The translations under genes and the position numbers were made by a program. Positions 42,946 to 58,738 of a stretch of DNA of 64,000 bases are shown here, in pieces. The first letter of the stretch is position 1; the number at the start of each line of letters is the position of its first letter. This stretch comes from Labilithrix sp. (lineage in GTDB: Bacteria; Myxococcota_A; Polyangia; Polyangiales; Polyangiaceae), in assembly GCA_046351255.1 (NCBI GenBank), contig JAXLYU010000014.1, positions 251,730 through 315,729 of the forward strand, read 5' to 3'. A model generated the notes under the pieces. It ran no database searches and was not told where the DNA came from. It saw only the letters and a program-made list of their open reading frames with translations.

Positions 42946-44229
42946 ATGAAGGATCCGCTCGAGGCCTCGGAGCGCGCCGCGATCCTCGCGCGGCCGCGGC
43001 CACGCCACGCGCTGCCCATCCTCGACGGTCCGCCGGAGCCCGGCGCGCCGAAGCGGCGGTACCTGCCGCTCGCCACGCCGCGCGAGTCGGATCGCGGGTT
43101 CGAGCCGCTCTTCGCGGTGTGGGAGGTGACGCTCCGCTGTGACCTCGCCTGCCGTCACTGTGGCTCGCGCGCCGGACGCGCGCGGCACGACGAGCTCTCC
43201 ACGGAGGAATGCGTCGATCTCGTTCGCCAGCTCGCCGGCATCGGCACCCGAGAGGTCGCGATCATCGGCGGCGAGGCGTACCTGCGCGACGACTGGACCA
43301 CGATCATTCGCGCCATCCGCGACCACGGCATGCGCGCCGTCATGACGACCGGCGGGCGCGGGCTGACCCCGGAGCGCGCGCGCGCGGCGAAGGAAGCTGG
43401 CCTCCAGGGGGTCAGCGTCTCGATCGATGGCGAGCGCGAGACGCACGATCGCCTGCGCGGCGTGAGCGGCTCCTACGACGCCGCGTTCGATGCGCTGCGG
43501 GCGCTGCGCGACGCGGGCATCAACGTCGCCACCAACACACAAATCAACCGGCTCACGATGCCGGAGATGCCACGCATGGTCGATCGGCTCGGCGACGCAG
43601 GCGTCCAGAGCTGGCAGATCCAGCTCACGGTGCCGATGGGCCGCGCCGCCGACGAGCCGGATGTGCTCCTCCAGCCGTACGACATGCTCGATCTCCATCC
43701 CATGCTCGCCGAGCTCGTCCCCGCCGCGAAGGCGCGTGGCATCGACGTCGTCGCCGGCAACAACGTCGGGTACTTCGGCCCGCACGAGTCGGCGCTCCGC
43801 GGGCGCACCCACTCGGGACACTCCGGGGGATGCGGCGCGGGTCGCGTCACGATCGGGATCGAGGCCGACGGGACGATCAAGGGCTGCCCGAGCCTCTCCA
43901 CCTCGACGTGGTCGGGAGGCAACGTGCGCGAGACCTCGCTCCAGGACATCTGGGAGCGCTCCACGGCCCTTCGCTACACGCGCGACCGGACCACGGAGGC
44001 GCTCTGGGGTTACTGCGCGTCTTGCTACTACGCCGACGAGTGCCGCGCGGGCTGCACGTGGACCGCCGACGTCATCTTCGGGAAGCCCGGGAACAATCCC
44101 TACTGCCACCATCGGGCGCTCGAGATGAAGAAGGCGGGCAAGCGAGAGCGGGTGGTCCAGGTCGAGGCCGCCCCGGGGCTGCCGTTCGACCACGGGCGAT
44201 TCGAATTGATCGAGGAGCCGATTGGATGA
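42946..44229 (+). CDS. Radical SAM / SPASM-domain enzyme (peptide-maturase-like)
   Basis: CxxxCxxC (CDLACRHC). Glycine-rich SAM motif region. C-terminal SPASM-type auxiliary-cluster cysteines (GGCGAGRVTIGIEADGTIKGCP ... CASCYYADECRAGC ... YCHH). Confidence 0.85.
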   Translation: MKDPLEASERAAILARPRPRHALPILDGPPEPGAPKRRYLPLATPRESDRGFEPLFAVWEVTLRCDLACRHCGSRAGRARHDELSTEECVDLVRQLAGIGTREVAIIGGEAYLRDDWTTIIRAIRDHGMRAVMTTGGRGLTPERARAAKEAGLQGVSVSIDGERETHDRLRGVSGSYDAAFDALRALRDAGINVATNTQINRLTMPEMPRMVDRLGDAGVQSWQIQLTVPMGRAADEPDVLLQPYDMLDLHPMLAELVPAAKARGIDVVAGNNVGYFGPHESALRGRTHSGHSGGCGAGRVTIGIEADGTIKGCPSLSTSTWSGGNVRETSLQDIWERSTALRYTRDRTTEALWGYCASCYYADECRAGCTWTADVIFGKPGNNPYCHHRALEMKKAGKRERVVQVEAAPGLPFDHGRFELIEEPIG

Positions 44230-44624
44230 ACACTCGAAGGATGGCGAAGCTTCACCCCTGCTCGGCGTGCGCACGGCACTTCAGGATCGCCGAGGCGATC
44301 TGCCCGTTTTGTGGCGCGGCCGCGGCCTCGTCGGTCTCGGGCGGAAAGCCGCTGCCGGTCGGGTCCGCCCTCACGCGCGCCGCGGTCGTCTTTGCGGTCA
44401 GCGCTGCGGCGGCGGCCTGCACGGGCGGCGGCGACGAGAACACGAGCTCCTCGGGCGGCTCGTCGACCAGCGGCGGCACCTCGACGTCGAGCGGCGGCTC
44501 GTCTTCGTCCTCGAGCGGCAACACGAGCGGCGCGGTCCCGGCCTACGGCGTCCCTGCGTTCGATGCCGGGACGAGCAGCGGCAACGCGCCGGCCTACGGC
44601 GTGCCGCCCACCGACGGCGGCTGA
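44226..44624 (+). CDS. Small protein: N-terminal CxxC...CxxC zinc-ribbon-like motif, hydrophobic segment, Ser/Gly-rich tail
   Basis: Start overlaps the rSAM stop (ATGA). CSAC-x12-CPFC. AAVVFAVSAAAAAC. SSSGGSSTSGG... tail with two PAYGVP repeats. The coding call rests on the coupling and frame. Confidence 0.5.
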   Translation: MNTRRMAKLHPCSACARHFRIAEAICPFCGAAAASSVSGGKPLPVGSALTRAAVVFAVSAAAAACTGGGDENTSSSGGSSTSGGTSTSSGGSSSSSSGNTSGAVPAYGVPAFDAGTSSGNAPAYGVPPTDGG

Positions 44625-44628
44625 GCGG

Positions 44629-45942
44629 CTACTGGCACTGGCCGCTGCACCGGGCGGCCTTGCACGTCGTGAGACGCTTGTAGAGTGCATCCGTATCGCA
44701 GCCCGCGGTCTCCGGGTTGCGCGTGCAGCGGTAGCAGTGACCGTCGCGCCCGCACGCGTCCTGCTCCGCGCAGCAGCCGCCGTTCATACAAGTGTTGCAC
44801 GCGCTGGGACCGGCATCGCCGGACGTCGCCTGCATCACCATTCCGCACTCCGGGACCGCGGCGCACGTCGTGTCGCCCGCGCACTGCGTCTCGCACGCGT
44901 TGCACGCGCAGTAGACGAGGGAGTGGTTGTACTTCGCGGCGCCGAACGGGAACTGGACTCCGCACTGCTTCTTGCAGTCGTCGCTCGCGCCCGCGTCGCC
45001 GCCGGCGCTGACGCACGCGGAGAGGCAGGTGCGGAGGCCGTTGCACTGCGCGTCGTTGTAGCAAGCGCGGCGGGCCTCGCCGCACGCGTTGGCGCCCGAG
45101 GTCGCCGTCTTCTTGCAAAGATCGCAGCTCGGCGCGGGGGCCGGCTTCGACATGATGCCCTGGAAGAACGCCTTGTGTGCGCTCGCGCGGACGCTGTAGC
45201 CGACGCCGACGCACGGCTCGTAGACGTACGAGTGGACCGCCGCGACGTACTCCTTGCCGCCGACCGTGACGAGGACGGGGCCGCCGCTGTCGCCGTGGCA
45301 GATGTCGCCGTTGTTGTCGTAACGGACGCCGACCGCGGTCGCGGAGAGGCTCGCGACGGTGCCGTCGATGCGATTCTTCAGCATGTTCGGACCCGCGTCC
45401 GTCTGGACGTCGGGACGGATGGTCATGCCCCAGCCGACGGACGTGACGCGCGTCTGGCCCTGCACCAGGTTGTCCGGGCTCAGCATCGGCACGACGGGCG
45501 TGTTCGCGTCGACTCCGATGACGCGGATCATCGCCACGTCGTACGGCGAGGTGGTCGCGCCGTTGTAGCTCGGGTGCTCGTAGTGATCGATGAACCCGTA
45601 CGAGACGAGCGTGGCGCTCGCCTTCTTGTCGTTGCCCTGCGTGATGGAGACGGAGGTCGCCTTGATCGTGCAGTGCGCAGCGGTGAGGACGTAGCCGATC
45701 TTCGTCGCCGGATCGACCGACACCATCGTGCCCGTGCAGCCCGAGTACTCGTCCTTGCCGCCGGGGCCTGGCTTCGTCATCGTGAGCGCCACGACCGCCG
45801 GGTGCCCCGTGTCACGCGAGCCGTTGATGATCGGCTCCGTCGTGTCCACGACGGGCACGTCGTCCTCGCTCGTGCTGACGGAGCACGCGACGGCGAGTGG
45901 GACAGCGGAGATGGCGATGAAGGCGAGGAGGCGGGCGAGCAC
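44629..45942 (-). CDS. Secreted S1 serine protease with a Cys-rich C-terminal domain (paralog 1)
   Basis: Signal/lipobox LAVACS. Catalytic TAAHC, DVAM, GDSGGPV. About 160-aa C-terminal domain with ~28 Cys after an APAPS linker. Confidence 0.8.
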   Translation of the reverse strand: MLARLLAFIAISAVPLAVACSVSTSEDDVPVVDTTEPIINGSRDTGHPAVVALTMTKPGPGGKDEYSGCTGTMVSVDPATKIGYVLTAAHCTIKATSVSITQGNDKKASATLVSYGFIDHYEHPSYNGATTSPYDVAMIRVIGVDANTPVVPMLSPDNLVQGQTRVTSVGWGMTIRPDVQTDAGPNMLKNRIDGTVASLSATAVGVRYDNNGDICHGDSGGPVLVTVGGKEYVAAVHSYVYEPCVGVGYSVRASAHKAFFQGIMSKPAPAPSCDLCKKTATSGANACGEARRACYNDAQCNGLRTCLSACVSAGGDAGASDDCKKQCGVQFPFGAAKYNHSLVYCACNACETQCAGDTTCAAVPECGMVMQATSGDAGPSACNTCMNGGCCAEQDACGRDGHCYRCTRNPETAGCDTDALYKRLTTCKAARCSGQCQ

Positions 45943-46039: not shown

Positions 46040-47371
46040 TCAGTTCGTCGGACACTCCGTCGCGCACTTGGTCGCCCGACACGAGCGAACCGCGTCGAGC
46101 ATCGCGTTCGATGCGCATTCTGCGGCGCCCGGATTTTTCATGCAGAACGAGCAGTGACCGTCCGACGCGCACGCTGACTCCTCTGCACAGCAACCACCCT
46201 CCATGCAACCGTTGCAGGTTGCATCGGCGAACTTCATCCCGCACCGGGGAGCCGCCGCGCACTGCGTGTCGCCGCTGCACGCGGAGTCGCACTCGTTGCA
46301 GGAGCAGAACGCGATCTGGCTCTGGTATGGACCGACGCCGTACGGGAACTGCGCGACGCACGCCTTTTGACAGTCGGCGGAGGCGCCCGCGTCGCCGCCC
46401 GTCGTCGACGAGCAACGACCGAGGCACTTGGCGAGGCCACCACACTGCTCGTCGTCCAGGCACTTGCCACGCGCGACGGCGCAGGTCTGCGTGCCGGAGA
46501 GGCTCTTCTTCCGGCAGAGCTCGCACGTCTCGGCGGGCGCCGGCGCGTTGATGATCGACCTGTAGAACGCGATCTGCGCGCTCGCGCGGACGCTGTAGCC
46601 TTGGCCCACGCAGTCGCCCGTGACGAAAGAGTGCACGCCCGCGACGTACTCCTGGCCGTTGACGACCGTGAGCACGGGACCGCCGCTGTCACCATGGCAG
46701 ATGTCGCCGTGGTTGTCGTAGGTGACGCCCATCTGCTGCGAGGTGAGGCGCGTGACGGTGCCGCTGATGCGGTTCTTCGCCGTGTTCATGCCGGCGTCGA
46801 CGTGCGAGTTGGGGCGTGTCGTCTGGCCGAAGCCGACCGACGTGACGCGCGTCTGGTTCTGGCTCATCTGGTCGGGCGAGAGCACGGGCACCACGGGCGT
46901 GGTGGCGTCGACGCCGAGGATGCGGACCATCGCGACGTCGTACGGCGACGACGTCTGGCCGTCGTATTGCGGATGTGCCTTCGCGTCGAGGAACGCGTAG
47001 GAGGCGATGCCGGTGGCGGACGAGAAGTCGTTCCCCGAGAGCACCTGGATCGTCGTCGCGTTGCGGACGCAGTGACCGGCCGTGAGCACGTAGCCGACCT
47101 TCGTGGTGGGGTTCGTGCTGATGATGGTCCCCGTGCAGAGGGCGAAGTTCGGGCGCGTCGAGCCTGGGTCGGGCGGGAGCGTCATCTGGAGGAGGACGAC
47201 GGCGGGATGCCCCGTGTCCTTCGAGCCCGTGATGATCGGCTGGTCCTGACCCACCGCGACCTCGGGGACGAGGCCATCGTGCGAGTCGCCGCTCCCCACC
47301 GAGCACGCCAGCGGGAGAGCAAAGAGAGAAGCCAGCGCCAGAGCACGCTTGGTGGATCGGGGTAGGACCAT
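46040..47371 (-). CDS. Secreted S1 serine protease with a Cys-rich C-terminal domain (paralog 2)
   Basis: Signal/lipobox LPLACS. TAGHC, DVAM, GDSGGPV. Same Cys-rich C-terminal architecture as paralog 1 (e.g. GGDAGASxDCxKxC conserved). Confidence 0.8.
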   Translation of the reverse strand: MVLPRSTKRALALASLFALPLACSVGSGDSHDGLVPEVAVGQDQPIITGSKDTGHPAVVLLQMTLPPDPGSTRPNFALCTGTIISTNPTTKVGYVLTAGHCVRNATTIQVLSGNDFSSATGIASYAFLDAKAHPQYDGQTSSPYDVAMVRILGVDATTPVVPVLSPDQMSQNQTRVTSVGFGQTTRPNSHVDAGMNTAKNRISGTVTRLTSQQMGVTYDNHGDICHGDSGGPVLTVVNGQEYVAGVHSFVTGDCVGQGYSVRASAQIAFYRSIINAPAPAETCELCRKKSLSGTQTCAVARGKCLDDEQCGGLAKCLGRCSSTTGGDAGASADCQKACVAQFPYGVGPYQSQIAFCSCNECDSACSGDTQCAAAPRCGMKFADATCNGCMEGGCCAEESACASDGHCSFCMKNPGAAECASNAMLDAVRSCRATKCATECPTN

Positions 47372-47613
47372 GGGGTCCGATGTACTGACGCATAATGCAA
47401 CATGCGGCAAGTGCCCCGCAGCACCTACACCCTTTCCAAAGTGGAAAAGCGCGCGGTGCGATCGAATGGCCGGCCCGGGGAGGGCACGATCGGCTTCGAC
47501 ATGCTTCTTCCCCGGGAAGAAATCCGCTAGGTAGCTCGTTCGCCGCGGGCCAGGGGTCACTTTGGCTCACGGCACTTAGGGTTTTTACGGAGGATTCAGT
47601 GTCCACCGACGTG

Positions 47614-48711
47614 ATGATCTACGCGAGTGGCCTGTCGAAGCGTTACGGCTCGTACAAGGCGCTCGATGACGTCAGCTTCGAAGTCAACAAGGGAGAGGTC
47701 GTGGGATTCCTCGGGCCGAACGGCGCCGGGAAATCGACGACGATGCGCATCCTCACGTGCTTCATCTCGCCGACGGGCGGGACGGCCAAGGTGCGCGGTC
47801 ACGATGTCTTCGATGACACCCTCGCGGTCCGCGCCTCGCTCGGCTACCTGCCCCAGCGCGCTCCCCTCTACCTCGAGATGACGGTGCTGGAGTACCTCCA
47901 GTTCGCCGCGCGCATCCGCAACATCGATGCGTCGAAGTTCAAGGAGCGCGCCCGCGCCGTCGTCGAGATCTGCGGCCTCGCGCAGTCGCTGTCGAAGGAG
48001 ATCCGCCAGCTCTCTCACGGCTATCGCCAGCGCGTCGGCCTCGCGCAGGCCCTCATCCACGATCCGCCCATCCTCATCCTGGACGAGCCCACGTCGGACC
48101 TCGACCCGAACGAGCGCACCGAGTTTCTCAACTACCTCAAGCAGATCGGCAAGGACCGCACCGTCCTCCTGTCGACCCACAACTTGAAGGAAGTCGAAGC
48201 GGCCTGCGCGCGCGCGATCATCGTCTCTCGAGGTCGCGTCGTCGCCGACGGTCCGCTCGACGAGATCCGCGCCAAGTCCGGCCGCGTTCGCTACGTCGTC
48301 TCCGTTCAGGAGTCGACCGGCGAGTCGCCGTACCGCGGCCGCGGCCAGCTCCCGCGCCAGGCCGAGGTCGAGTCCGCGCTGAACAACCTCGCCGGCGTGA
48401 AGAAGGTCACCGAGCTCCCCACCGACGAGCGCGCGCACTCGTACGAGCTGTCCGGTGACGACGCCATCGATCTCCGCCCCGAGCTCTTCCGCCTCATCGC
48501 GGACAAGGGGTGGGTCCTCCTCGAGCTTCACCGCGATACGCAGACCCTCGAAGACGTGTTCCGCCACCTCACGATCGGTGACGAGCGCCGCAACCGCCAG
48601 CTCGGCGGCAAGGAAGCGCCTGCGCCCGTCGAGGACGAGGAAGACGAGGACGAGGAAGAAGACGAAGAGGACGAAGAAGAAGAGTCCGACGACGACGAGG
48701 AAGAAAAATGA
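47614..48711 (+). CDS. ABC-transporter ATP-binding protein (GldA-like, ABC-2 type) with a poly-acidic C-terminal tail
   Basis: Walker A GPNGAGKST. Signature LSHGYRQR. Walker B ILILDEPT. C-terminal EDEEDEDEEEDEEDEEEESDDDEEEK. The start was chosen at MIYASGL (a GTG at 47599 is also possible). Confidence 0.85.
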   Translation: MIYASGLSKRYGSYKALDDVSFEVNKGEVVGFLGPNGAGKSTTMRILTCFISPTGGTAKVRGHDVFDDTLAVRASLGYLPQRAPLYLEMTVLEYLQFAARIRNIDASKFKERARAVVEICGLAQSLSKEIRQLSHGYRQRVGLAQALIHDPPILILDEPTSDLDPNERTEFLNYLKQIGKDRTVLLSTHNLKEVEAACARAIIVSRGRVVADGPLDEIRAKSGRVRYVVSVQESTGESPYRGRGQLPRQAEVESALNNLAGVKKVTELPTDERAHSYELSGDDAIDLRPELFRLIADKGWVLLELHRDTQTLEDVFRHLTIGDERRNRQLGGKEAPAPVEDEEDEDEEEDEEDEEEESDDDEEEK

Positions 48712-49673
48712 GCTCCGAGACGATCGAGAAGGACGAGAAGAAGAAGAAGGCGCTCGCCGCGGCGGCGCGCGAAGAAGAGGAAGACGAAGAGGAGTCGGAC
48801 GAGGAAGAGTCCGACGACGACGAGTCGGACGAGGACGACGACGACGCGGCCACGCGGCCGATGAAGTCGAGCGACGTCGCCAGCGGATCGACCGGATCGA
48901 AGGAGAAGGTCGTCATCGACCGTCCGTCATCGCTCTCGATGATCTGGACGATCGCGCGGCGCGAGCTCGACGGCTACTTCAACTCCGTCATCACGTACAT
49001 CGTCATCTCGGCGAGCATGGTCGGTCTCGGCCTGTTCTTCTACATGTACAAGGGCGGCTTCTGGCAGGTCGACCGCGTCACCATGCAGCGCATGTTCGAC
49101 TTCCTGCCGTTCGCGCTCTGCGCCCTCGTGATCCCGCTGTTCACGATGCGCGCCCTCTCGGACGAGAAGCGCGTCGGTACGATCGAGCTCCTCATCACGA
49201 TGCCGGTGAAGGACTCCGAGGTCATCCTCGGCAAGTACGTCGCCGCGCTCGCCATCCTCACGGTGCAGCTGTTCCTCGTCGTGCTCTACCCGCTCGCGAT
49301 GTTCAAGTGGCCGTGGCACCTCGGCGAGCTCGACTGGGGCGCCTTCTGGGTCGGCATGCTCGGCTTGTTCTGCCTCTCCGCGACGGGCGTCGCGATGGGC
49401 CTGATGTACTCGAGCTTCACCGACAGCCAGATCCTCTCGTTCTTCGCGACGATGCTGACCCTGACCCTGCTCTACGCGATCGGTCAGGTCTCCGCCGTCG
49501 AATCTCTCCAGGGCTGGCCGGGCGACGCGATCGCCTTCATCAGCCTCCAGTCGCGCTTCGAGCCCTTCGCGCGCGGCCTCATCGATTCACGTGCGATCGT
49601 CTACTTCGTATCGATCGCCGTGCTTTGCCTGCTCGTCGCGTTCCACGCGCTCGAGCGCCGGAAGTGGAGCTGA
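48708..49673 (+). CDS. ABC-2 family permease (GldF-like) with a poly-acidic N-terminal extension
   Basis: Six predicted TM helices. N-terminal EEEEDEEESDEEESDDDESDEDDDD. Overlaps the ATPase stop. Confidence 0.8.
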   Translation: MSSETIEKDEKKKKALAAAAREEEEDEEESDEEESDDDESDEDDDDAATRPMKSSDVASGSTGSKEKVVIDRPSSLSMIWTIARRELDGYFNSVITYIVISASMVGLGLFFYMYKGGFWQVDRVTMQRMFDFLPFALCALVIPLFTMRALSDEKRVGTIELLITMPVKDSEVILGKYVAALAILTVQLFLVVLYPLAMFKWPWHLGELDWGAFWVGMLGLFCLSATGVAMGLMYSSFTDSQILSFFATMLTLTLLYAIGQVSAVESLQGWPGDAIAFISLQSRFEPFARGLIDSRAIVYFVSIAVLCLLVAFHALERRKWS

Positions 49674-49679
49674 TCCGCC

Positions 49680-51539
49680 ATGGCCATGGAACGTAAGAAG
49701 AAGGCCGCCACCGAGAGCGGCGCCCTCCTGTTCATCATCGCCGCGATCGTCGTCGGCGTGAACACGCTCAGCTACTTCATGTACGTCCGCAAGGACATGA
49801 CGAAGGCCGAGAAGTACACGCTGTCCGAGGGCAGCGGTCGCCTCATCCGCTCGATCAAAGACGGCGAGCAGATCAAGGTCGACGCCTACGTCACGAAGGG
49901 TCTGCCGAAGCTCGACGCCTTCGTGCGCGACCTTCGCGACCTCCTCCAGCAGTACAAGGACGCGGGCAAGGGCAAGTTCGACTACACGATCATCGAGCCC
50001 AAGACCGAAGAGGAGCGCAAGAAGGCGGAAGAAGCCGGCCTCCAGAAGCTCCAGCGCGTCGAAGGCTCGGACACGGAAGACAAGGCGGAAGTGGCCCAGG
50101 GCTACATGGGCCTCGTCTTCACCTACAAGACCCAGCGCGAGAAGATCCCGGTCCTCTCGCCCGACAACAACACGGGCCTCGAGTTCTGGATCACGAACAA
50201 GATCCGCGAGCTCAAGGACGCGGGCGACAAGACGAAGCACAAGCTCGGCGTCATGACCGGCCACGAGGAGATCAAGCTCTCCGAGCCGAACCTCGTCCCG
50301 GGCCAGGGCCGTCAGGGTGGTCCGACCATCCAGGCCATCATCGGCCAGTACTTCCCGTTCTACGAGATCAAGGACGTCGATCTGAAGAACGGCGACGCCG
50401 AGATCGACGAGTCGCTCGACGGCCTACTCATCACGCAGCCGAACAAGGAGTTCACCGAGAAGGAGCTCCGCCGCATCGACCAGTTCGTGATGCGCGGCAA
50501 GTCGCTCGCGATCCTCGCCTCCGCCGTCAACACGAAGGCGGGCGACGCGACGATGAACGCGAAGCTCGACACGCACGGCCTCGAGAAGCTCACCGAGGGC
50601 TACGGCATCATCATGCACAAGGACGTCGTCCTCGACTTCGGGCGCTCCTTCCGCGTCCGCGTCGACACGATGACGGGCCCGCGCACGATGATCTTCCCGC
50701 AGATCCTCGACGTCCGCGAGGACTCGCGCTTCACGGGTGACGAGGTCCTCCTCGACACGAGCTTCGCCGCGTTCTTCCGCATCCCGCAGGCGTCGTTCCC
50801 GTTCGCTTCGTCCCTCGAGATCAAGAAGGACAAGCAGCCCCAGCTCGGCGACAAGCTCCGCGCGATCGCGCACTCGACGCCGGCCGCCATCGTCGAGACT
50901 GGCGACACGGTCGACCTCAAGCCCGCGCGCCAGTGGCGTCCGAAGGGCAACTTCCAGCAGTTCACGCTCGCCGCGGCCGCGGAGGGCAAGCTCAAGACGG
51001 CGTTCCCGACGGGCGACAAGATGGGCGTCGAGACGCCGGCCGAGGCGGCGAACAACGCGCGCGTACTCGTCCTCTCGTCCGCGCAGTTCTTCGCCAATCC
51101 GTTCGTTCGCTCGGGCCAGGGCCCGGACATGGGCGGTCAGATGGCGATGATGATGGGCAACGCAGGCGGCGACGAGTTCCTCAACTCGGTCGCAGGCCCG
51201 TACGTTCAGCTCATCGGCACCACGTTCATCCTCCAGACGAAGAACCTCCTCGACTGGATGACGGGTGACGTCGACCTGCTCGCCGCTTCCGCCAAGATCC
51301 TCCAGGAGCCGAACCTCGCGTACGGCGACGTCGTGAAGCCGAAGGCCGGCGAGGAGATGACGGAAGAGCAGCTCAAGAAGGAAGAAGACCGCATCAAGAA
51401 GGAGCGCAAGACGAAGCAGTACTGGATCGAGGGCACCATGACCCTCGGCATCCCGCTGCTCTTCATCGCCGTCGGCGTCCTCCTCTGGCAGGTCCGCGAA
51501 GGCCGCCGCAAGAACGCGGTCGCACTCCTCCAAGCGTAA
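49680..51539 (+). CDS. GldG-family ABC-associated auxiliary protein
   Basis: N- and C-terminal TM anchors flanking a large periplasmic domain, as in GldG. Follows the ABC-2 permease. Confidence 0.75.
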   Translation: MAMERKKKAATESGALLFIIAAIVVGVNTLSYFMYVRKDMTKAEKYTLSEGSGRLIRSIKDGEQIKVDAYVTKGLPKLDAFVRDLRDLLQQYKDAGKGKFDYTIIEPKTEEERKKAEEAGLQKLQRVEGSDTEDKAEVAQGYMGLVFTYKTQREKIPVLSPDNNTGLEFWITNKIRELKDAGDKTKHKLGVMTGHEEIKLSEPNLVPGQGRQGGPTIQAIIGQYFPFYEIKDVDLKNGDAEIDESLDGLLITQPNKEFTEKELRRIDQFVMRGKSLAILASAVNTKAGDATMNAKLDTHGLEKLTEGYGIIMHKDVVLDFGRSFRVRVDTMTGPRTMIFPQILDVREDSRFTGDEVLLDTSFAAFFRIPQASFPFASSLEIKKDKQPQLGDKLRAIAHSTPAAIVETGDTVDLKPARQWRPKGNFQQFTLAAAAEGKLKTAFPTGDKMGVETPAEAANNARVLVLSSAQFFANPFVRSGQGPDMGGQMAMMMGNAGGDEFLNSVAGPYVQLIGTTFILQTKNLLDWMTGDVDLLAASAKILQEPNLAYGDVVKPKAGEEMTEEQLKKEEDRIKKERKTKQYWIEGTMTLGIPLLFIAVGVLLWQVREGRRKNAVALLQA

Positions 51540-51549
51540 GGAAAACGAG

Positions 51550-52599
51550 ATGAGCTCCAGCACGAAGCTTTACGTGGGCGTGATCGTCCTCGCCGGTCTC
51601 GGCGGGGCGATCTACATGGCGCAGAAGAAGGACAAGGAGATCGGCTCGACGACGACGTCGGCGGCCGAGCTCCCCGAGATCAAGGCGCCTGACGACATCG
51701 ACAAGGTCGTCATCCAGAACGGCGAGAAGACCGAGGTCACCCTCGAGAAGAAGGGCGACAAGTGGGAGATGACGAAGCCCGTCAACGCTCCCGCGAATCA
51801 GTCCAACGTCGACTCGGTGGTGAAGAACCTGAAGGAGCTGAAGGCGAAGGAGGTCATCCTTCCGACGCCGACGGAGGACTCCAAGAAGGACTACGACTTC
51901 ACCAAGGAGAAGCAGGTCCACGTCCAGGCCTTCAAGGGCTCGGAGAAGAAGACCGACATCACCTTCGGTGGCTCGGGTCAGCGCGGTCAGATGGCGACGA
52001 TCGACGGCAAGCAGCCGATCTACGGCGTCACCGGCTACTCGTCCTACCTCTACACGCGCGACGTGAAGGGCTTCCGCGAGACGGAGATCTTCAAGTTCGA
52101 CGACGCGAACGCGAACTCCCTCGTGATCGAGAAGAAGGGTGAGAAGAAGCCCGAGGTCCTCTCGTTCACGAAGGACGGCGATCACTGGGCCGGTACGTTC
52201 AACGGCAAGGCGATCGAGCGCTTCGACGAAGACAAGGTGAAGGACGCGGTCCGCGCGTTCAAGTCGCTCACCGCGGACGACTTCGGCGACGGCAAGACGG
52301 AGGCCGAGACGGGCCTCGACGAGCCGGACGCGAAGGTCACGATCAAGCTGAAGGACGGCGCGGGTCAGTACGCGTTCCGCGTGGGCAAGGTGGCGAACGG
52401 CACCACGCGCTACGCGAAGCGCGAGGACTCGCCGACGATCTACACGCTCCCCGCGTTCACCGCCGACTGGGCGGTCGCGCCCGAGTCGAAGTTCCAGAAG
52501 GCGGCCGACGCCGGCGCGCCGAAGGACGGCGGCGCCAAGAAGGCGGGCGGCGACGACCACGGCGATCCGCACGGTCACGGCGATCCGCACGGTCACTGA
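51550..52599 (+). CDS. DUF4340-like periplasmic protein with a His-rich C-terminus
   Basis: N-terminal TM helix. K/E-rich beta-domain repeats. C-terminal DDHGDPHGHGDPHGH. DUF4340 proteins commonly follow GldG homologs. Confidence 0.65.
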   Translation: MSSSTKLYVGVIVLAGLGGAIYMAQKKDKEIGSTTTSAAELPEIKAPDDIDKVVIQNGEKTEVTLEKKGDKWEMTKPVNAPANQSNVDSVVKNLKELKAKEVILPTPTEDSKKDYDFTKEKQVHVQAFKGSEKKTDITFGGSGQRGQMATIDGKQPIYGVTGYSSYLYTRDVKGFRETEIFKFDDANANSLVIEKKGEKKPEVLSFTKDGDHWAGTFNGKAIERFDEDKVKDAVRAFKSLTADDFGDGKTEAETGLDEPDAKVTIKLKDGAGQYAFRVGKVANGTTRYAKREDSPTIYTLPAFTADWAVAPESKFQKAADAGAPKDGGAKKAGGDDHGDPHGHGDPHGH

Positions 52600-52632: not shown

Positions 52633-53295
52633 CTACGGCGCTTCCGGGTCCTGCTGGCAGCACGAGCCTGGCAACGGCGGCGGGGTCGTGCGGGTACAGA
52701 CGGTGTGACAGCGGTCCTCGCCGCAGCTGGCCGAGGACTCGCTGGCAGACGCGAGCGCGCCGCTCGAGCAGTGAATCACGATGTCGCGCGCCTCGACGGC
52801 GAATCCGATGTCCTTGCCGCAGTACCAGATGTCGGTCGCCGTTTTGTCCGGGCAGTTCGCGCACTGGCTCGGCGTCGACCCGTTGACCGACGCGCACCCC
52901 ATCGCGCAGTGACGAACACAGGTCGCCGTCCCTTCGGAATCGCATTCGATGAGGTCGGTGGGCTCGAGCCCTTTGGGAACGGACGGAAGCTCGCTCGCGC
53001 AGATCGATCGCTTGGAGGTGGTGCAGTCGAGGTTGTTGAAGTCGACCTGCGGGTCGCAGGGGGGTGGATACGCCGTGGACGAGCCGCTGCTGCTCGAGCT
53101 CGTCGAGCTGGTAGCCGCATCGCCGCTCGAGGAGGAACCGCTCGCACCGCTCGTGCTCGATGCGCCGCTGCTCGAGCCGTCGGGGGCAGCGGCATCGGCG
53201 ACGGGATCCTCCGTGGAGCCGTAATCGGTGCAGTGAAGCAACGTCGCGAACGCGAACGCGAACCCGAGCGGTACGATGACGGTCGAGCGAATCAT
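52633..53295 (-). CDS. Cys-rich secreted protein, tandem family member 1
   Basis: Signal peptide. S/G-rich linker. ~115-aa domain with 16 Cys including CVRHCAMGCA...WYCGKD...SCC. Confidence 0.65.
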   Translation of the reverse strand: MIRSTVIVPLGFAFAFATLLHCTDYGSTEDPVADAAAPDGSSSGASSTSGASGSSSSGDAATSSTSSSSSGSSTAYPPPCDPQVDFNNLDCTTSKRSICASELPSVPKGLEPTDLIECDSEGTATCVRHCAMGCASVNGSTPSQCANCPDKTATDIWYCGKDIGFAVEARDIVIHCSSGALASASESSASCGEDRCHTVCTRTTPPPLPGSCCQQDPEAP

Positions 53296-53984
53296 GGAAC
53301 GCAGCACGCGGGGCGGGCGGAGTTGACCTCGATCGGCGTCGGGCACTGGGACGCGCACTTGTTGGCGCCGCACTTGGCGGACTCGACCTGCTTGTGCTTG
53401 TCGCAGTGGACGGCCATGCCGTTGTCGAGGCCCTTCCAGTCACCCTTGAGGTCCTTCGTGCAGTACCAGCCGTCTTCCTTGTCGAAGCACTCGTCGCACG
53501 AGTCGTTGTAGCCGGCGGGCATCTCTGCGCAGCCGTGCGGGCAATGGCGCACGCAGATGGGCGTGCCCGAGCCGGTGCAATCGATGAGGTCCGACGCCTT
53601 GGCCGCGCCCTGGAGGAGCCCGGGCTCCGAGCCGCAGTTCGGACGCGTGTACTTGCCGTTCGCGGGCGTGGTGCAGTTGATCTGCGTTCGATCGAACGCC
53701 TCGTCGCACGGCGGCGGGATGACGGTCGCGGCGCCGCTGCTCGACGAGGCGCCGCCGGTGCTCGAGGAGCTCGAGTCGCCGCTCGAGGAGCTCGACGAGC
53801 TCGAGTCACCGCTCGAGGAGCCCGAGGTCGGTCTGCGGCCGCCGCCGTCCGGCTTCGCGTCGTCGTCATCGTCGCCGATCGCGCCTGCACCCGGCGCATC
53901 GTCGAAGCTGACGAGGAACGTGCAGCCCGCCACGAACGCGATCGTGGCCGCCGTGCCGAGCACCAGCGGGAGCTTCGGGCGCAT
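53292..53984 (-). CDS. Cys-rich lipoprotein, tandem family member 2
   Basis: Lipobox VAGC followed by the conserved TFLVSFDD. Poly-Ser acidic linker. CVRHCPHGCAEMPAGYNDSCDECF...WYCTKD...ACC. Confidence 0.7.
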   Translation of the reverse strand: MRPKLPLVLGTAATIAFVAGCTFLVSFDDAPGAGAIGDDDDDAKPDGGGRRPTSGSSSGDSSSSSSSSGDSSSSSTGGASSSSGAATVIPPPCDEAFDRTQINCTTPANGKYTRPNCGSEPGLLQGAAKASDLIDCTGSGTPICVRHCPHGCAEMPAGYNDSCDECFDKEDGWYCTKDLKGDWKGLDNGMAVHCDKHKQVESAKCGANKCASQCPTPIEVNSARPACCVP

Positions 53985-54054
53985 AGGTGGGCAAGCCTAG
54001 CTCCATCCGCCAGAACCGCACGTTCTGGCTGGCGATTGCGCCGCTAACGCAGAA

Positions 54055-54681
54055 TTACTGGCAGCACGCAGGCGAGGCGCTGCCCGTCGTGCACTTCGTG
54101 GCGCAGGCGGTGGCGGTGTCCGAGCAGTTGGTGTGCTCCGCCTTTCGGCCGTCCGCGCAGCGGATCGCGAAGACCGCGTTCTTTGGATCCCAGTTGCGGA
54201 AGTCCTTCGCGCAGTACGTCCCGTTCGGCTTTCCGAAGCAGTCGTCGCACTGATCTGGAAAGCCGCTCGGCATCTCCGCGCAGCCATTCGGGCAGTGTCG
54301 CACGCACTGCGGTTGCTTCTCGGCGTCGCACTCGACGAGATCGTCCGGCTCGATGCCAGTGACCCCGGGCTCGCTCCCGCACTCCGCCCGCGTGTAATTC
54401 CCGCAGCTGATGTCGCCGAGCGTGACGGTGCCATCGCAGTCGGGCGGGAACTTCTCGACCGTGCCGCTGCTGCTCGACGAGGAGGAGCTCGACGACGTGT
54501 CACCGCTGCTTCCCGAGCTGGTGCTCGAGCTCGACGAGCTCGACGACGAGCGTCCGCGTCCCGCGTCGACCGTGCCCTCGTCCGCGGGCTCACCCGCGCT
54601 CGGCACATCGTCGAACGACACGAGGAACGTGCAGCCCGCGGCACACGCCGCGACGACGGTCGCGAGCACGAGCGACTTCAT
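54055..54681 (-). CDS. Cys-rich lipoprotein, tandem family member 3
   Basis: Lipobox AAGC plus TFLVSFDD. Poly-Ser linker. CVRHCPNGCAEMPSGFPDQCDDCF...YCAKD...ACCQ. Confidence 0.7.
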   Translation of the reverse strand: MKSLVLATVVAACAAGCTFLVSFDDVPSAGEPADEGTVDAGRGRSSSSSSSSSTSSGSSGDTSSSSSSSSSSGTVEKFPPDCDGTVTLGDISCGNYTRAECGSEPGVTGIEPDDLVECDAEKQPQCVRHCPNGCAEMPSGFPDQCDDCFGKPNGTYCAKDFRNWDPKNAVFAIRCADGRKAEHTNCSDTATACATKCTTGSASPACCQ

Positions 54682-55346
54682 TCTTTGGTGTTCTGGCAAC
54701 ACGAGCCCTTCAGCGGGGGCGGGCTCGTGCGCGTGCACTTGGTGTGGCAGTAGCCGACGCCGCAGGCGCCGGGTGAGGAGTTGCCGCTCTCAGCCAGGCC
54801 GTTGACGACCCTGCCGTTTTTGCACGCATACGCGATGTCGTGCGCCTTGGTCTCCCACTGCGTGTCTTTCCCGCAGTACCAGATCTCGACTTCCGCGGGG
54901 TCCTTGCAGTTTGCACATTGATCCGGAAAGCCGGATGGGTTCCGCGCGCAGCCCATCGTGCAGTGGAAGATGCAGACGGGCGCCTCCCCCTGGCACTGCG
55001 TGAGGTCGTCTTCGGCCCCGGCCAGGTCGCAATAGAAGCCGTCCGCCTTGCCCGCGCAGTTGGCGGCGCCGAGGTTCGACTTGTCGCACGCGGGCGGGTA
55101 GACCGCGCCGCTCGAGGAGCTCGACGACGAGCTGCTGCTCGAGGACTCGCCGCTGCTGCTGCTCGAGGACTCGCCGCTGCTGCTGCTGCTCGAGCTGCTC
55201 GGCTTGCGGCCCGAGTCGACGGTGTCGTCGTCGTCGTCCGGCGCCGCGCCCGCATCGGGCACGTCATCGAACGAGACGAGCAACGTGCAGCCGACCGCGC
55301 CCAGGGTGAAGGCGGCGCTGAGGGTGAGCGCGAGCACGGGACGCAT
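54678..55346 (-). CDS. Cys-rich lipoprotein, tandem family member 4
   Basis: Lipobox AVGC plus TLLVSFDD. Poly-Ser linker. CIFHCTMGCARNPSGFPDQCANC...WYCGKD...SCCQ. Confidence 0.65.
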   Translation of the reverse strand: MRPVLALTLSAAFTLGAVGCTLLVSFDDVPDAGAAPDDDDDTVDSGRKPSSSSSSSSGESSSSSSGESSSSSSSSSSSSGAVYPPACDKSNLGAANCAGKADGFYCDLAGAEDDLTQCQGEAPVCIFHCTMGCARNPSGFPDQCANCKDPAEVEIWYCGKDTQWETKAHDIAYACKNGRVVNGLAESGNSSPGACGVGYCHTKCTRTSPPPLKGSCCQNTKE

Positions 55347-55643
55347 CGACTCGAATTCTAGCGTACGGGAGGGGTCGTCGCTCATTTCCCGAGGTCGAGA
55401 ATCAGGTGGGCCGTTTCGCGGCCATTTCCTCGACAAAGCACGTGAATCTCGTTGTCGCGGCTCAGGCCCGCGACACGCCTCGAGGACGACCGCGTCGACC
55501 TCATCGAGGGCGCAGGCGCAGCCGCCGAGCCGGTCGCACGCCCAGCGTCTCATCTATCCACATGAGAATGGCGTGTATCGGTCGCGGCGCACGACATCTG
55601 TGCGGGTTCTCCGTCCCCTTGGGTGTGCTAACTAGGCGTATCG

Positions 55644-56705
55644 ATGGATCTCTTCGGACACCTCAAGGCCTACGACTACGGTGAAGTTCACTTCAAGCAC
55701 GACAAGGCGTCGGGGCTGAAGGCCATCATCGCGATCCACGACTCGCGGCTCGGCCCCGCGCTCGGCGGCTGCCGCTTCCTCCCGTACGACACCGACGAGC
55801 AGGCGGTCATCGACGCGCTCCGCCTCGCGCGCGGCATGACGTACAAGGCGGCCATCACCGGCCTCGCGCACGGCGGCGGCAAGAGCGTGCTCATCCGCCC
55901 GAAGCAGCATTTCGACCGCGTCGCGATGTTCCGCGCGTTCGGCAAGTTCGTCGACGACCTCGGAGGCCACTACATCACCGCGGAAGACAGCGGCACCGGC
56001 CTCGAGGACATGGACGTGATGCGCACGGTGACGAAGCACGTCACCGGCGTCGGCCCGCAGTACGGCGGCTCGGGCGACCCGTCGCCGTTCACCGCGCTCG
56101 GCGTTCGTCGCGGCATCGAGGCGTGCGTGAAGTTCCTCCTCAAGAAGGACTCGCTCCAGGGCGTGCACGTCGCGGTGCAGGGCGTCGGCCATGTCGGCTA
56201 CCACCTCTGCAAGGAGCTGCATGCTTCCGGCGCCACCATCTCCGTCGCCGACGTCGACCCGCTGAAGAGCGAGCGCGCGCAGCGCGAGTTCGGCGCGAAG
56301 ATCGTCCCCCTCGACGACATCTTCTCCATCGACTGCGACGTCGTCGCCCCGTGCGCGCTCGGCTCGGCGATGAACGATGTCTCCATCCCGAAGATCCGCG
56401 CGAAGATCGTCGCGGGCGCCGCGAACAACCAGCTCGCGGAGCCGCGCCACGGCGACGACCTCCACGCGCGCGGCATCCTCTACGCGCCGGACTACGCCAT
56501 CAACGCGGGCGGCCTCGTCAACGTGGCCCAGGAGGTCCTCGGGTACGACGCGGGGAAGAGCCGCGAGAAGACGATGCAGATCTTCGACACCATCTTCGAG
56601 ATCGCGGACCGCAGCGCCAAGACGGGCACCCCGACCTACCGCATCGCGGACATGATCGTCGAAGAGAAGCTCGCCAAGCACGGCCACGACCCCGCCTCGA
56701 AGTAG
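55644..56705 (+). CDS. ldh: Leucine dehydrogenase (Glu/Leu/Phe/Val dehydrogenase family)
   Basis: Near full-length similarity to Bacillus leucine dehydrogenase (KAIIAIHDSRLGPALGGCRF...GGGKSV...VQGVGHVGYHL...GAANNQL). Confidence 0.9.
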   Translation: MDLFGHLKAYDYGEVHFKHDKASGLKAIIAIHDSRLGPALGGCRFLPYDTDEQAVIDALRLARGMTYKAAITGLAHGGGKSVLIRPKQHFDRVAMFRAFGKFVDDLGGHYITAEDSGTGLEDMDVMRTVTKHVTGVGPQYGGSGDPSPFTALGVRRGIEACVKFLLKKDSLQGVHVAVQGVGHVGYHLCKELHASGATISVADVDPLKSERAQREFGAKIVPLDDIFSIDCDVVAPCALGSAMNDVSIPKIRAKIVAGAANNQLAEPRHGDDLHARGILYAPDYAINAGGLVNVAQEVLGYDAGKSREKTMQIFDTIFEIADRSAKTGTPTYRIADMIVEEKLAKHGHDPASK

Positions 56706-56725: not shown

Positions 56726-56750
56726 CCACCTACTCGAAGAGGTGGCCTAG
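56726..56750. terminator. Possible bidirectional hairpin between convergent ldh and the downstream minus-strand gene
   Basis: GGCCACCT-actcgaag-AGGTGGCC, an 8-bp stem. It overlaps the last codons of the minus-strand gene. No clear U-tract. Confidence 0.3.
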
Positions 56751-57473
56751 CCCGAAGTAGACGAGGGCGTTCCCGAGCCTCATGCGCACGTCGTAGATCC
56801 CGCGCGTGCTCTTGCCGCGCCGGATGTAGGTGAACGCGAACGTGATGCGCTCTTCTCCTTCGCCGAGGGGCGTGACCCGGTGATAGGCGCGCGTCCCGCA
56901 GAAGAACGCGAACGTTCCCGGCACCGTATGGATGCTCTTTCGCAGCGGCTTCTCGCCCGGGCGATCGCGCTTCGTCTCGATCTCGAGGCGGCTCGAGCTG
57001 TCGTCGACGAGGCCGATGATGGTCGAGAACGAGTCGTCGGGCGGGCAGCCGCACTCGTCGTAGTGCCAGTCCATCCAGTCGCCCGGGCGCGTGTACGTGT
57101 AGAGCGCAGACTGATGTGCCTCGTCCGGATCGCGGTGCTCGAGCGGGACGCCCGTGACGCGCTCGAACATCGCCATGAGCGACGGCGAGCGATGCAGGGC
57201 GGTGAGCGCGGGCGCCTCGCGCGCGATGGCGGCATGATGGACGGCGCCCGCCTTACGCAGGAAGGGCACGCGCTTGCGCACGGCCCGCCTCGAGAGCGCG
57301 CGCGCCTCGGCGATCATCTCTCCGAGGAGCGGCTCGGGCAGGAGGCGCGGCAGGAGCACGACGCCGTCGTCGTCGCGGTACGCCCGGGCCATCGCGTCCT
57401 CGTCGAAGCTCTCGACGAGCTCGCGGATGATGTCCTCCCGGGGCCTCGCGACGCCGTCGAGCATTCCGGGCAT
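56730..57473 (-). CDS. Hypothetical protein, possibly a 2OG-Fe(II)/PhyH-like oxygenase fold
   Basis: H-x-D (WHYDE) and distal His (AYHRV) spaced as in cupin/2OG oxygenases. The assignment is weak. Confidence 0.45.
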   Translation of the reverse strand: MPGMLDGVARPREDIIRELVESFDEDAMARAYRDDDGVVLLPRLLPEPLLGEMIAEARALSRRAVRKRVPFLRKAGAVHHAAIAREAPALTALHRSPSLMAMFERVTGVPLEHRDPDEAHQSALYTYTRPGDWMDWHYDECGCPPDDSFSTIIGLVDDSSSRLEIETKRDRPGEKPLRKSIHTVPGTFAFFCGTRAYHRVTPLGEGEERITFAFTYIRRGKSTRGIYDVRMRLGNALVYFGLGHLFE

Positions 57474-57529: not shown

Positions 57530-58738
57530 ATGCCCGATCTCGACACGGCCGCCTGGTACGCGCTCGGCGTTCCTGCGTACCTGCTCTACATCGGCGCCGA
57601 GGTCTTCATCGCGTGGCGCCGGCGCGAGCGAGAGAAGGTGTTCGGCTTCGCGGAGACGCTCTCGAACCTGACCGCGGGCTTCGGCACGCTCGTCATCGGG
57701 CTCTTCGTCGGGCCGTTCGTGCTGCGCGCATGGGACCTCGCGCACGATCATCTCGCCCCGGTGCGCTGGCCCACGCAGGGCGCGTGGCGCCTGCCCGCGG
57801 CGCTGATCCTCGCCGACTTCTGCTACTACGCGTACCACCGCGCCGGCCACCGCTTCGCGCTGTTCTGGTCCATTCACGGGATCCATCACCAGCACGAGTA
57901 CCTGAACTCGTCGGTCGGGTTTCGCCTCGAGTGGCTGGCGGATCCGTACGCCGCGCTCTTCTTCGGGCTCATGCCGCTCGCGGGCATCGACTCGACGACG
58001 GGCTTCGCCGCGCTGATGATTCTCTCGATCTACGCGCTGACCGCGCACACCACCGTGCTCGGTCGTCCGTCGTTCGGGTTCCTCGTCACCCCCGCGATCC
58101 ACGGCGCTCATCACTCGCGCGACGCGCGGTTCGCGGACAAGAACTTCGGGGCGATGCTCGGGATCTGGGATCGGCTGTTCGGCACGTGGCTCGAGCCTCG
58201 CGCGGGCGAGAGGCTCTGCGCGGACGTGCCGTCGATCGCGCGCACGCACGACGGCGTACGAACGCAGTGGGGCCTCGTCCGTGAGCTCGCGCGCGAGGTC
58301 GCGAGCGCCGGAGGCCTCCGCGCGAAGCTCCGCGTGCTCCTCTCTCCGCCCGTGGTGGCGGGCCCGCCCGCTCCGCTGCGCGAGGACGCGGAGATCGCGT
58401 GGAAGGCTCGCATCTACGTGCTCGTTCAGTTCGCGGGCATGGCGCTCCTCGGGACGTGGCTCTTGCTCGCGCCGGTCGCGCGCCCGCTCCACGTGCAGGT
58501 CGCGGCAGCGGTGACGGTCCTCGTCGGGCTCTCTGCGCTCGGAGGGCTGCTCGACGGACGAAGCGGCGCGCTCCGCTTCGAGCGGGCGCGCCTCGTCGCG
58601 CTCGCGGCGGCCGGCGGAGCGCTCGCGACCCACGAGCGCGTGTATCTCGCGCTCATCGCGCTCGCCGCCTTCGGGCTCGTGCATTCTCTCTCTCTCGAGA
58701 CGGCGGAGGCTCGGTCGGCCGGGCCGGCGGGGACGTGA
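57530..58738 (+). CDS. Fatty acid hydroxylase / sterol desaturase family membrane protein
   Basis: His boxes HRAGH, HGIHHQHE, HGAHH. Multiple TM helices. Extra C-terminal hydrophobic region. Confidence 0.8.
   Translation: MPDLDTAAWYALGVPAYLLYIGAEVFIAWRRREREKVFGFAETLSNLTAGFGTLVIGLFVGPFVLRAWDLAHDHLAPVRWPTQGAWRLPAALILADFCYYAYHRAGHRFALFWSIHGIHHQHEYLNSSVGFRLEWLADPYAALFFGLMPLAGIDSTTGFAALMILSIYALTAHTTVLGRPSFGFLVTPAIHGAHHSRDARFADKNFGAMLGIWDRLFGTWLEPRAGERLCADVPSIARTHDGVRTQWGLVRELAREVASAGGLRAKLRVLLSPPVVAGPPAPLREDAEIAWKARIYVLVQFAGMALLGTWLLLAPVARPLHVQVAAAVTVLVGLSALGGLLDGRSGALRFERARLVALAAAGGALATHERVYLALIALAAFGLVHSLSLETAEARSAGPAGT

Follow-up and report, generated by a model that had tools for sequence, protein, structure and literature searches.

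The array of four genes

We analysed a stretch of 64,000 nucleotides of contig JAXLYU010000014.1 (Labilithrix sp., assembly GCA_046351255.1), referred to below as the window, and within it four consecutive genes on the minus strand, M1 to M4, which were located at 52633-55346, where the first-pass annotation of the sequence had placed them. All four predicted products have a hydrophobic N-terminus and a linker rich in Ser, Gly and Asp, again in agreement with that annotation, and end in a Cys-rich domain. This domain is, as judged by profile comparison, homologous to a six-Cys repeat carried by hydrolases of the Polyangia, the group of Myxococcota in which Labilithrix is placed. On balance we favour the interpretation that M1-M4 form a tandem array of lipid-anchored envelope proteins, in which a disordered spacer displays a tandem glycan-binding module of the peptidoglycan or chitin type. 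The features of the array are as follows; the guanine-plus-cytosine content is abbreviated to GC.

54678-55346, minus strand: M4 gene, 222 aa (GC at third codon positions 0.91; family profile E=1.5e-33); signal peptide, lipobox AVGC (Cys20), TLLVSFDDVP, Ser-rich linker, 16-Cys domain
55257-55289, minus strand: M4 anchor-proximal module C-T-L-L-V-S-F-D-D-V-P (supported by the DNA pattern and the family logo)
55107-55256, minus strand: M4 spacer, low-complexity, Asp/Ser-rich, about 50 aa
54681-55106, minus strand: M4 Cys-rich domain, 16 Cys, two repeats
54055-54681, minus strand: M3 gene, 208 aa (family profile E=8.9e-44; AlphaFold2 models); signal peptide, lipobox AAGC (Cys17), TFLVSFDDVP, Ser-rich linker, 16-Cys domain
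54601-54633, minus strand: M3 anchor-proximal module C-T-F-L-V-S-F-D-D-V-P (supported by the DNA pattern and the family logo)
54457-54600, minus strand: M3 spacer, low-complexity, Ser-rich, about 48 aa, predicted disordered (predicted local distance difference test, pLDDT, 51-56)
54247-54405, minus strand: M3 repeat 1, residues 93-145, one extra Cys in CVRHC (hhalign 96.6%, E 5e-10)
54061-54240, minus strand: M3 repeat 2, residues 148-207, extra C-terminal Cys (hhalign 95.7%, E 1e-8)
53985-54054, minus strand: intergenic gap between M3 and M2, 70 bp (similar layout in the relative L025)
53292-53984, minus strand: M2 gene, 230 aa (family profile E=4.2e-44); signal peptide, lipobox VAGC (Cys21), TFLVSFDDAP, Asp/Ser/Gly-rich linker, 16-Cys domain
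53892-53924, minus strand: M2 anchor-proximal module C-T-F-L-V-S-F-D-D-A-P (supported by the DNA pattern and the family logo)
53724-53891, minus strand: M2 spacer, low-complexity, Asp/Gly/Ser-rich, about 56 aa
53295-53723, minus strand: M2 Cys-rich domain, 16 Cys, two repeats
52633-53295, minus strand: M1 gene, 220 aa, a divergent paralogue; signal peptide, atypical 'LLHC' followed by CTDYGSTED, no TFLVSFDD, Ser-rich linker, 16-Cys domain
53074-53229, minus strand: M1 spacer, low-complexity, Ser-rich, about 52 aa
52636-53073, minus strand: M1 Cys-rich domain, 16 Cys, two repeats
55347-55643, no strand assigned: divergent intergenic region upstream of M4, presumed promoter region

The genes had been described as chained throughout by ATGA start/stop overlaps, and this is true of two of the three junctions, M4/M3 (stop of M4 over start of M3) and M2/M1 (stop of M2 over start of M1), whereas M3 and M2 stand 70 bp apart. 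A scan for promoters and terminators gave nothing above chance, and the region upstream of M4 (55347-55643) contained no sigma-70-like consensus. The GC content of the window is 64-73%, and that of third codon positions in M1-M4 is 0.85-0.93, matching neighbouring genes. The four proteins are 40-50% identical in pairwise comparison. Two other explanations were ruled out, spurious open reading frames (ORFs) of high GC content by the Cys scaffold kept in more than 100 homologues, and recent duplication or gene conversion by the DNA of the paralogues, the best stretches of which reach an identity of no more than about 70-74%. On the evidence of sequence, M1-M4 are genuine, conserved paralogous genes.

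The cysteine-rich domain and its relatives on hydrolases

The C-terminal domain contains exactly 16 Cys residues in each of M1-M4, 15 of them in invariant alignment columns, which bears out the earlier count of about 16; its span from first to last Cys is about 126-134 aa, not the ~115 aa first given. The Cys pattern quoted for it (PPxCD...CVRHCxxGCAxxPxG(F/Y)xDxCxxC...WYCxKD...CC) holds overall, with deviations in M4 (CIFHC), in M3 (TYCAKD) and in M1, which lacks the PxG(F/Y) element. That this pattern belongs to no named domain was confirmed with Pfam, NCBIfam, the sequences of the PDB and a Foldseek comparison with PDB structures: Pfam at E<=1 offered no family for M1-M3 and for M4 only the irrelevant CLEC16A_C (E 0.97), the NCBIfam scan of M1-M4 matched no family, and a PDB sequence profile search with the domain returned only noise at E=1.3.

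The profile-profile comparison that had been suggested did produce a match, not to a named domain but to an unnamed six-Cys repeat of hydrolases, with a probability above 95% for each half of the domain. This repeat is ~50 aa long, with the consensus CPxGxGxYCGGxxVxGDxxTLYxCxxGxxxxxxxCxxGCxVxPxGxxDxC, and in repeat-bearing hydrolases is itself matched by no Pfam (E<=0.01) or NCBIfam model. When a profile of 33 hydrolase repeats (A4) was aligned by hhalign with the domain, the probability was 96.6% (E 5e-10) for the N-terminal half, 95.7% (E 1e-8) for the C-terminal half and 96.7% against the alignment of the four paralogues. A hidden Markov model (HMM) built from the hydrolase repeats only, run over the whole window, found M3 (8e-10), M2 (4e-7), M4 (5e-6) and M1 (1e-5) and nothing else; in the reciprocal search, the M1-M4 profile reached multi-repeat hydrolases at E values down to 6e-27. 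Since each half matches the repeat profile separately, the 16-Cys domain consists of two diverged tandem repeats with four extra Cys residues, and its homology to the Polyangia hydrolase repeat is genuine.

Cell-wall hydrolase-type domains are carried by 16 of the 25 multi-repeat representatives, distributed as follows.

GH25: 2 proteins
Amidase_2: 3 proteins, one with SLT
CHAP: 3 proteins
M23: 5 proteins
Peptidase_C39_2: 2 proteins
NAGPA: 1 protein

Names given to repeat proteins at source include CHAP protein [Polyangiaceae], N-acetylmuramoyl-L-alanine amidase [Myxococcales] and GH25 lysozyme, and the proteins so named belong to Polyangiaceae or Myxococcales. The search among cluster representatives also returned large proteins with multiple matches (15 stretches in P0060 and 10 in P0063; P and L numbers denote proteins and loci of this analysis), in which the six-Cys repeat recurs regularly, and a protein search with a 49-aa repeat profile gave only 10 short fragments, uninformative on domain architecture. 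The hydrolase repeat (e.g. in HLK38846.1 and MCB9540600.1) shares with M1-M4 the scaffold C-x7-C-G...C-x10-C-xxG-C-xxxPxGxxDxC. The hydrolases, however, hold 2-15 regular copies adjoining a catalytic domain and have no lipobox, whereas M1-M4 have exactly two diverged copies, four extra Cys residues, a predicted lipid anchor with spacer, and no catalytic domain. Variable-number tandem repeats on many types of peptidoglycan hydrolase are the signature of wall-targeting modules such as LysM, SH3b and CW_7. These modules and PG_binding_1 resemble the six-Cys repeat in occurring in variable numbers, in tandem, on diverse hydrolase catalytic domains, but they have no sequence or fold kinship to it and are not disulfide-rich.

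Predicted structure

AlphaFold2 was run on full-length M3 (54 aligned sequences), giving a pLDDT of 94-98 for the domain and about 52-56 for the N-terminal 75 residues, and on the domain only (27 sequences), giving a mean pLDDT of 93.2 and a predicted template modelling score of 0.84. The modelled fold is thus compact and confidently predicted (pLDDT 93-98 over both models), and the check proposed in the first-pass annotation revealed in addition a weak resemblance to CBM14-type modules (CBM, carbohydrate-binding module). Fold comparisons gave the following values.

8in3, EHEP: 4.2
4zce, Der p 23: 3.9 (45/48 residues aligned, 2.2 Å)
6so0, CBM14 of chitotriosidase: 3.3-3.5 (28-29% identity)
2mfk, Blo t 12 chitin-binding domain: 2.7-3.7
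1dqc, tachycitin: 2.1-2.5

Foldseek, searched against the PDB, gave no match at E<=0.001, and the Pfam CBM_14 model did not match M1-M4. CBM14 modules have the six-Cys spacing CX13-20CX5-6CX9-19CX10-14CX4-14C, and that observed in the repeat, C-x7-C-x13..16-C-x10-C-x3-C-x10-C, is unlike it. The modelled likeness to CBM14-type chitin-binding modules is reproducible but weak, is no evidence of family membership, and would be consistent with binding of a glycan of the N-acetylglucosamine (GlcNAc) type.

The lipobox and the post-lipobox motif

Lipoboxes were judged by inspection of the sequences, as an n-region and an h-region followed by [LVI][ASTVI][GAS]-C. Such a site is present in M2 (FVAG-C), M3 (CAAG-C) and M4 (GAVG-C), Ala at position -3 of M3 and M4 being a slight deviation from [LVI], and is absent from M1, which has LLH-C with His at -1 and could be secreted in soluble form instead. 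In the family as a whole, the residue at -1 is Gly in 78%, Ala in 16% and Ser in 6%.

The residues directly after the lipid-bearing Cys of M2-M4 had been reported as nearly identical (C-T-F/L-L-V-S-F-D-D), and so they are; M1 has CTDYGSTED. A degenerate DNA pattern of the motif matched three times in the window, against 0.00 matches expected by chance. Among 114 lipobox-bearing homologues the logo reads, with percentages, G78-C-T72-F60/L24-L82-V47/I37-x-F87-D76-D66-x-P66, and the motif is the best-conserved feature other than Cys, regardless of the type of linker; in a subgroup that includes M1 it is replaced by C-x-(D/P)-Y/F...E.

The phylogenetic distribution of the motif, which had been named as a check, is that of Polyangia lipoprotein N-termini, nearly all of this family. 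An exact scan with the degenerate DNA pattern of 185,579 GTDB species-representative genomes gave 19 matches. Fourteen fall at the N-termini of lipoproteins encoded by Labilithrix, Polyangiaceae or Myxococcales metagenome-assembled genomes (MAGs), with the domain present in 13 of these 14; the other five are internal to unrelated ORFs from other phyla, in agreement with a rough estimate of chance that takes account of the information content of the pattern. In metagenomes the pattern gave 32 matches, of which five are due to chance (low-GC or non-signal) and 27 are lipoprotein N-termini, made up of 21 family members, three proteins cut by contig ends and three longer proteins with 33-37 Cys. 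When about 254 kb of fetched DNA were searched with a loosened motif, no further ORF matched, a weak control because these loci were chosen through the motif. A protein search with a 42-aa profile of the N-terminal motif found nothing at E<=10, the motif being too short for 5.8 billion sequences, so that the evidence for its specificity comes from the two scans with the DNA pattern.

L011 from the genome scan and the three longer proteins from the metagenome scan make up a second family of Cys-rich lipoproteins (L011:1974-2600, plus strand; L028; L034; L052), of 204-335 aa with 27-37 Cys, the N-terminus of which has the G-C-T-F/L-L-V-x-F-D-D module followed by a short C-x4-C element. Its C-terminal domain is different (...CCGGxPV...NCGVCGWxC...CTGC...HCSPSNC...DYCxY); the domain profile did not match it, and Pfam gave nothing but a sub-threshold Stig1. 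The presence of the motif in at least two families of Cys-rich lipoproteins, and its absence from the other lipoproteins sampled, argue that it is an autonomous N-terminal module and no general lipoprotein signal. In 13 distant members of the M1-M4 family (P0053, P0086, P0090, P0103, P0108, P0121, P0127, P0147, P0149, P0159, P0163, P0167 and P0171) the motif drifts to C-T/S-L-L-V-Q/D-F-H/V-D, and a C-(D/E)-G-G-x-C element, present in the second family as well, opens the linker right after it. These sequences suggest an N-terminal module that in some lineages extends further.

The first-pass annotation had suggested that the motif is a sorting or processing signal. Its conservation in the 114 homologues, its near-exclusivity to the family and its fusion to a second Cys-rich domain are the behaviour of a functional signal, which may sort, process or dock the protein. 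In Myxococcus xanthus, Lys at +2 confers inner-membrane retention and Ala at +7 export to the extracellular matrix (PMC3222651). The family has neither of these features, with Thr at +2 (72%) and Phe at +7 (87%), and by analogy the outer membrane would be the default location under the M. xanthus rules, which are drawn from another order (PMC3222651). The lipoprotein export signal (LES) of Bacteroidota is C-X-K-(D/E)2-X or S-D-D-D-D at +2 to +6 (PMC5080379); M2-M4 lack it, having T-F/L-L-V-S-F at +2 to +7 and the acidic pair at +8/+9. Like the Polyangia motif, the LES is short, conserved, placed directly after the +1 Cys and provided with an acidic pair, and it offers a candidate analogy for a sequence that dictates surface exposure (PMC5080379). 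The LES, however, is polar and found on many unrelated lipoproteins (PMC5080379), whereas the Polyangia motif has a hydrophobic T-F-L-V-x-F before D-D and is confined to the two Cys-rich families.

The linker

Ser makes up 34-47% of the linker in M2-M4 and 33-52% in the clade of the window; in most homologues outside that clade the linker is rich in Pro, Asp and Ala. The distance from the lipid-bearing Cys to the next Cys has a median of 53 residues, so that in the 114 homologues length is kept and composition is not. M2-M4 combine a lipobox and a polyserine linker with a non-catalytic module, here a putative CBM. In Saccharophagus degradans, proteins with a lipobox, a polyserine linker and a CBM anchor carbohydrate-active proteins at the outer membrane (PMC2386152), and the systems of S. 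degradans and Cellvibrio share with M2-M4 a lipoprotein signal, a polyserine spacer and a small non-catalytic binding module (PMC2386152). Those organisms are Gammaproteobacteria, their modules are classified CBMs, and they have no conserved post-lipobox motif (PMC2386152), whereas M2-M4 belong to Myxococcota and their binding module is unclassified, unrelated to those CBMs and has only a putative ligand.

Family size and history of the paralogues

A profile of the four domains matched 53 proteins in a word-index protein search and gave 133 matches among cluster representatives, including 58 with E<=1e-10. The homologues are nearly all of ~170-240 aa with a common layout, those with names come from Labilithrix, Polyangiaceae or Myxococcales MAGs, and subfamilies with 12, 14 or 16 Cys in the domain can be distinguished. 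The M1 protein has an identical counterpart, annotated as hypothetical, in a Labilithrix sp. MAG (P0004). The array of four genes recurs on a metagenome contig from ENA (L020), and three shorter contigs carry parts of it.

The relative L025 has three tandem paralogues, a, b and c, with a 4-bp overlap and then a ~73-bp gap, as in the window. The orthologue of M2 is c, at 75-80% identity, while b corresponds to M3 and a to M4; the triplication is therefore older than the split of the two genomes. By sequence, M1 is an additional member of the M4-like lineage. The paralogues are old, and they probably differ in specificity or expression.

Genomic neighbourhood

The array is flanked in the window by the following genes.

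41817-42944, plus strand: adenosine deaminase
42946-44229, plus strand: radical S-adenosylmethionine (rSAM)/SPASM enzyme
44629-45942 and 46040-47560, minus strand: two trypsin-like proteases
47395-52599, plus strand: ATP-binding cassette (ABC) ATPase, ABC(-2) permease, GldG-like protein (DUF7088 + ABC_transp_aux) and DUF4340 protein
55644-56705, plus strand: Leu/Phe/Val dehydrogenase
56730-57473, minus strand: HalD-like oxygenase (2-oxoglutarate oxygenase/halogenase D family)
57530-58738, plus strand: fatty-acid hydroxylase-family membrane protein

At its C-terminus the DUF4340 protein carries a tail rich in His, DDHGDPHGHGDPHGH. The array had been described as next to the proteases and the rSAM enzyme, but the proteases are about 5 kb and the rSAM gene 8.4 kb away, with the 5.2-kb, oppositely oriented ABC/GldG/DUF4340 operon in between. 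The rSAM protein scores 524 bits as nif11-class peptide maturase 3 and 500 bits as GDL-motif peptide maturase, both below the curated cut-offs. Just downstream of it lies a ~130-aa ORF (about 44226-44624, plus strand) with a CxxC...CxxC start, a hydrophobic stretch ending in 'AAAAC' and a Ser/Gly-rich tail. At least the first protease has a very Cys-rich C-terminal tail of ~150 aa, different in sequence from the six-Cys repeat, and the repeat HMM was negative on the proteases of the window. A functional link of the array to the rSAM enzyme was rejected: it is a maturase of the nif11/GDL-peptide type, missing from the syntenic locus L024, and none was seen beside the distant homologues. A link to the proteases, which are without the repeat and have unrelated Cys-rich tails, was rejected likewise.

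L024, from a relative of 80% identity, has kept the array together with the DUF4340/ABC operon, the two proteases and adenosine deaminase. Synteny of the ABC/GldG/DUF4340 operon with the array extends to this close relative and not to distant homologues, which are single genes located elsewhere, by an S46 peptidase and DNA ligase (14-Cys) or by gyrB (16-Cys). The 12-Cys subfamily has a context of its own at 13-15 loci (L002, L003, L006, L008, L009, L017 and about 9 more), with a membrane sulfatase-family protein upstream and, on the same strand downstream, a ~2000-aa tetratricopeptide repeat protein; these flanks may be a functional neighbourhood particular to that subfamily.

Discussion

In the interpretation we favour, M1-M4 would be exported by the Sec pathway, and M2-M4 would be lipid-modified at Cys21, Cys17 and Cys20, respectively. 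The ten residues T-F/L-L-V/I-x-F-D-D-x-P that follow would probably direct the protein to its destination or fix it there, and the outer membrane, probably the cell surface, is the location that we favour. The disordered spacer, about 45-75 residues long in the computed architecture, would serve as a flexible tether, and the 16-Cys domain, as two tandem six-Cys repeats of ~50 aa presumably stabilized by about eight disulfides, would hold its ligand at the envelope without cutting it, most likely GlcNAc glycans (peptidoglycan or chitin) or the walls of prey. Because the Polyangia attach the repeat to peptidoglycan hydrolases, and because of the weak likeness to CBM14, a GlcNAc-containing glycan is the most likely ligand. 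Lipidation, a location in the outer membrane and probably at the surface, and binding of a peptidoglycan- or chitin-type glycan are thus predicted together from the sequences.

Several observations weigh against this interpretation. Fusion to hydrolases links the repeat to wall attack rather than to a particular ligand, and a protein, lipopolysaccharide or a surface polymer of prey could be bound; repeat 1 of M1-M4 moreover lacks the 'TLY' and 'GLYCG' aromatics conserved in the hydrolase repeats. The fold link to CBM14 is suggestive only, because the Cys spacing differs and the Pfam model fails to match. The post-lipobox motif is modelled with low confidence (pLDDT about 52-56) and the model is uninformative on a partner, and the sequences appear compatible with either a surface or a periplasmic orientation. 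There is no universal partner gene across the contexts examined, where neighbour clustering gave synteny at the level of subfamilies only; the distant homologues sit in unrelated contexts. Ligand binding, lipidation and localization of the family members are, finally, all predicted properties.

The alternative that survives best, although we consider it unlikely, is that these proteins are periplasmic tethers of the outer membrane to peptidoglycan, analogous to Lpp and Pal, with the anchor in the inner leaflet, the spacer crossing the periplasm and the repeats gripping the cell's own peptidoglycan. Architecture and putative ligand would be the same as in the surface arrangement, and the core chromosomal contexts (gyrB, DNA ligase, the ABC/GldG operon), the lack of Lys at +2 and a spacer of which the length is kept (median 53) and the composition is free, as expected of a molecular ruler, are all in accord with it. 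The other hosts of the repeat, however, are secreted lytic enzymes acting outside the producer, eight disulfides in about 130 aa are typical of extracellular proteins, and such staples are usually single and abundant rather than three or four diverged paralogues with dispersed subfamilies.

It is also conceivable, but a good deal less probable, that M1-M4 are decoys or immunity factors for self-protection, which would mask the sites recognized by repeat-bearing lysins of the producer itself or of a competitor, or bind the lysins directly. Possession of one repeat by lipoproteins and lytic enzymes would fit such a role, as would the diversification of the paralogues in an arms race, and membrane lipoprotein inhibitors of lysozyme, of the MliC/PliC class, exist. 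Immunity genes, however, usually adjoin the toxin gene and no gene for a repeat-bearing hydrolase lies beside any family member examined, and binding of repeat to repeat would be hypothetical. We think it very improbable that the disulfide-rich domain itself harms prey, as a cell-associated antimicrobial or antifungal effector resembling tachycitin or PAFC-type proteins: a lipid anchor with a long tether is atypical of diffusible toxins, and those hydrolases that carry the repeat kill by a catalytic domain of their own, an arrangement that speaks for targeting as the task of the repeat. That the array encodes substrates of the rSAM/SPASM enzyme or of the trypsin-like proteases, in a processing cassette like those of ribosomally synthesized and post-translationally modified peptides, is scarcely credible, for although SPASM maturases act on Cys-rich peptides and the 64-kb window also contains an rSAM of the peptide-maturase type, the rSAM gene is 8.4 kb distant beyond the opposite operon and absent from L024, which keeps the array, the distant homologues have unrelated neighbours and show no conserved co-location of precursor and maturase, the proteases are without the repeat, and the lipoproteins are predicted to be exported by Sec while rSAM enzymes are cytoplasmic.

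If the surface-anchored, glycan-binding interpretation is followed further, it is tempting to speculate that G-C-T-F/L-L-V/I-x-F-D-D-x-P is a new, Polyangia-specific signal for sorting or surface export, or a strand that docks to an outer-membrane partner, and routes disulfide-rich glycan-binding lipoproteins towards the surface, and that the six-Cys repeat is the first bacterial counterpart of CBM14, gripping the peptidoglycan of prey; in this full form the proposal is a tentative and somewhat doubtful one. A likeness to CBM14, if true, would be unusual for bacteria. The very conserved 10-residue motif, common to two apparently unrelated Cys-rich families, offers a handle on the rules of lipoprotein sorting in myxobacteria outside Myxococcus. 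The architecture of lipobox, polyserine linker and binding module is already known in kind, and the post-lipobox module is a specific candidate for a lipoprotein signal confined to one lineage; no current knowledge is overturned, and one family and one hypothesis are added. The repeat itself is an uncatalogued disulfide-rich module on many peptidoglycan hydrolases of the Polyangia, of potential use in the study of myxobacterial predation and in lysin engineering, and the same module also occurs in a non-catalytic, tandem and predicted lipid-anchored form, which would be a lectin of the cell envelope.

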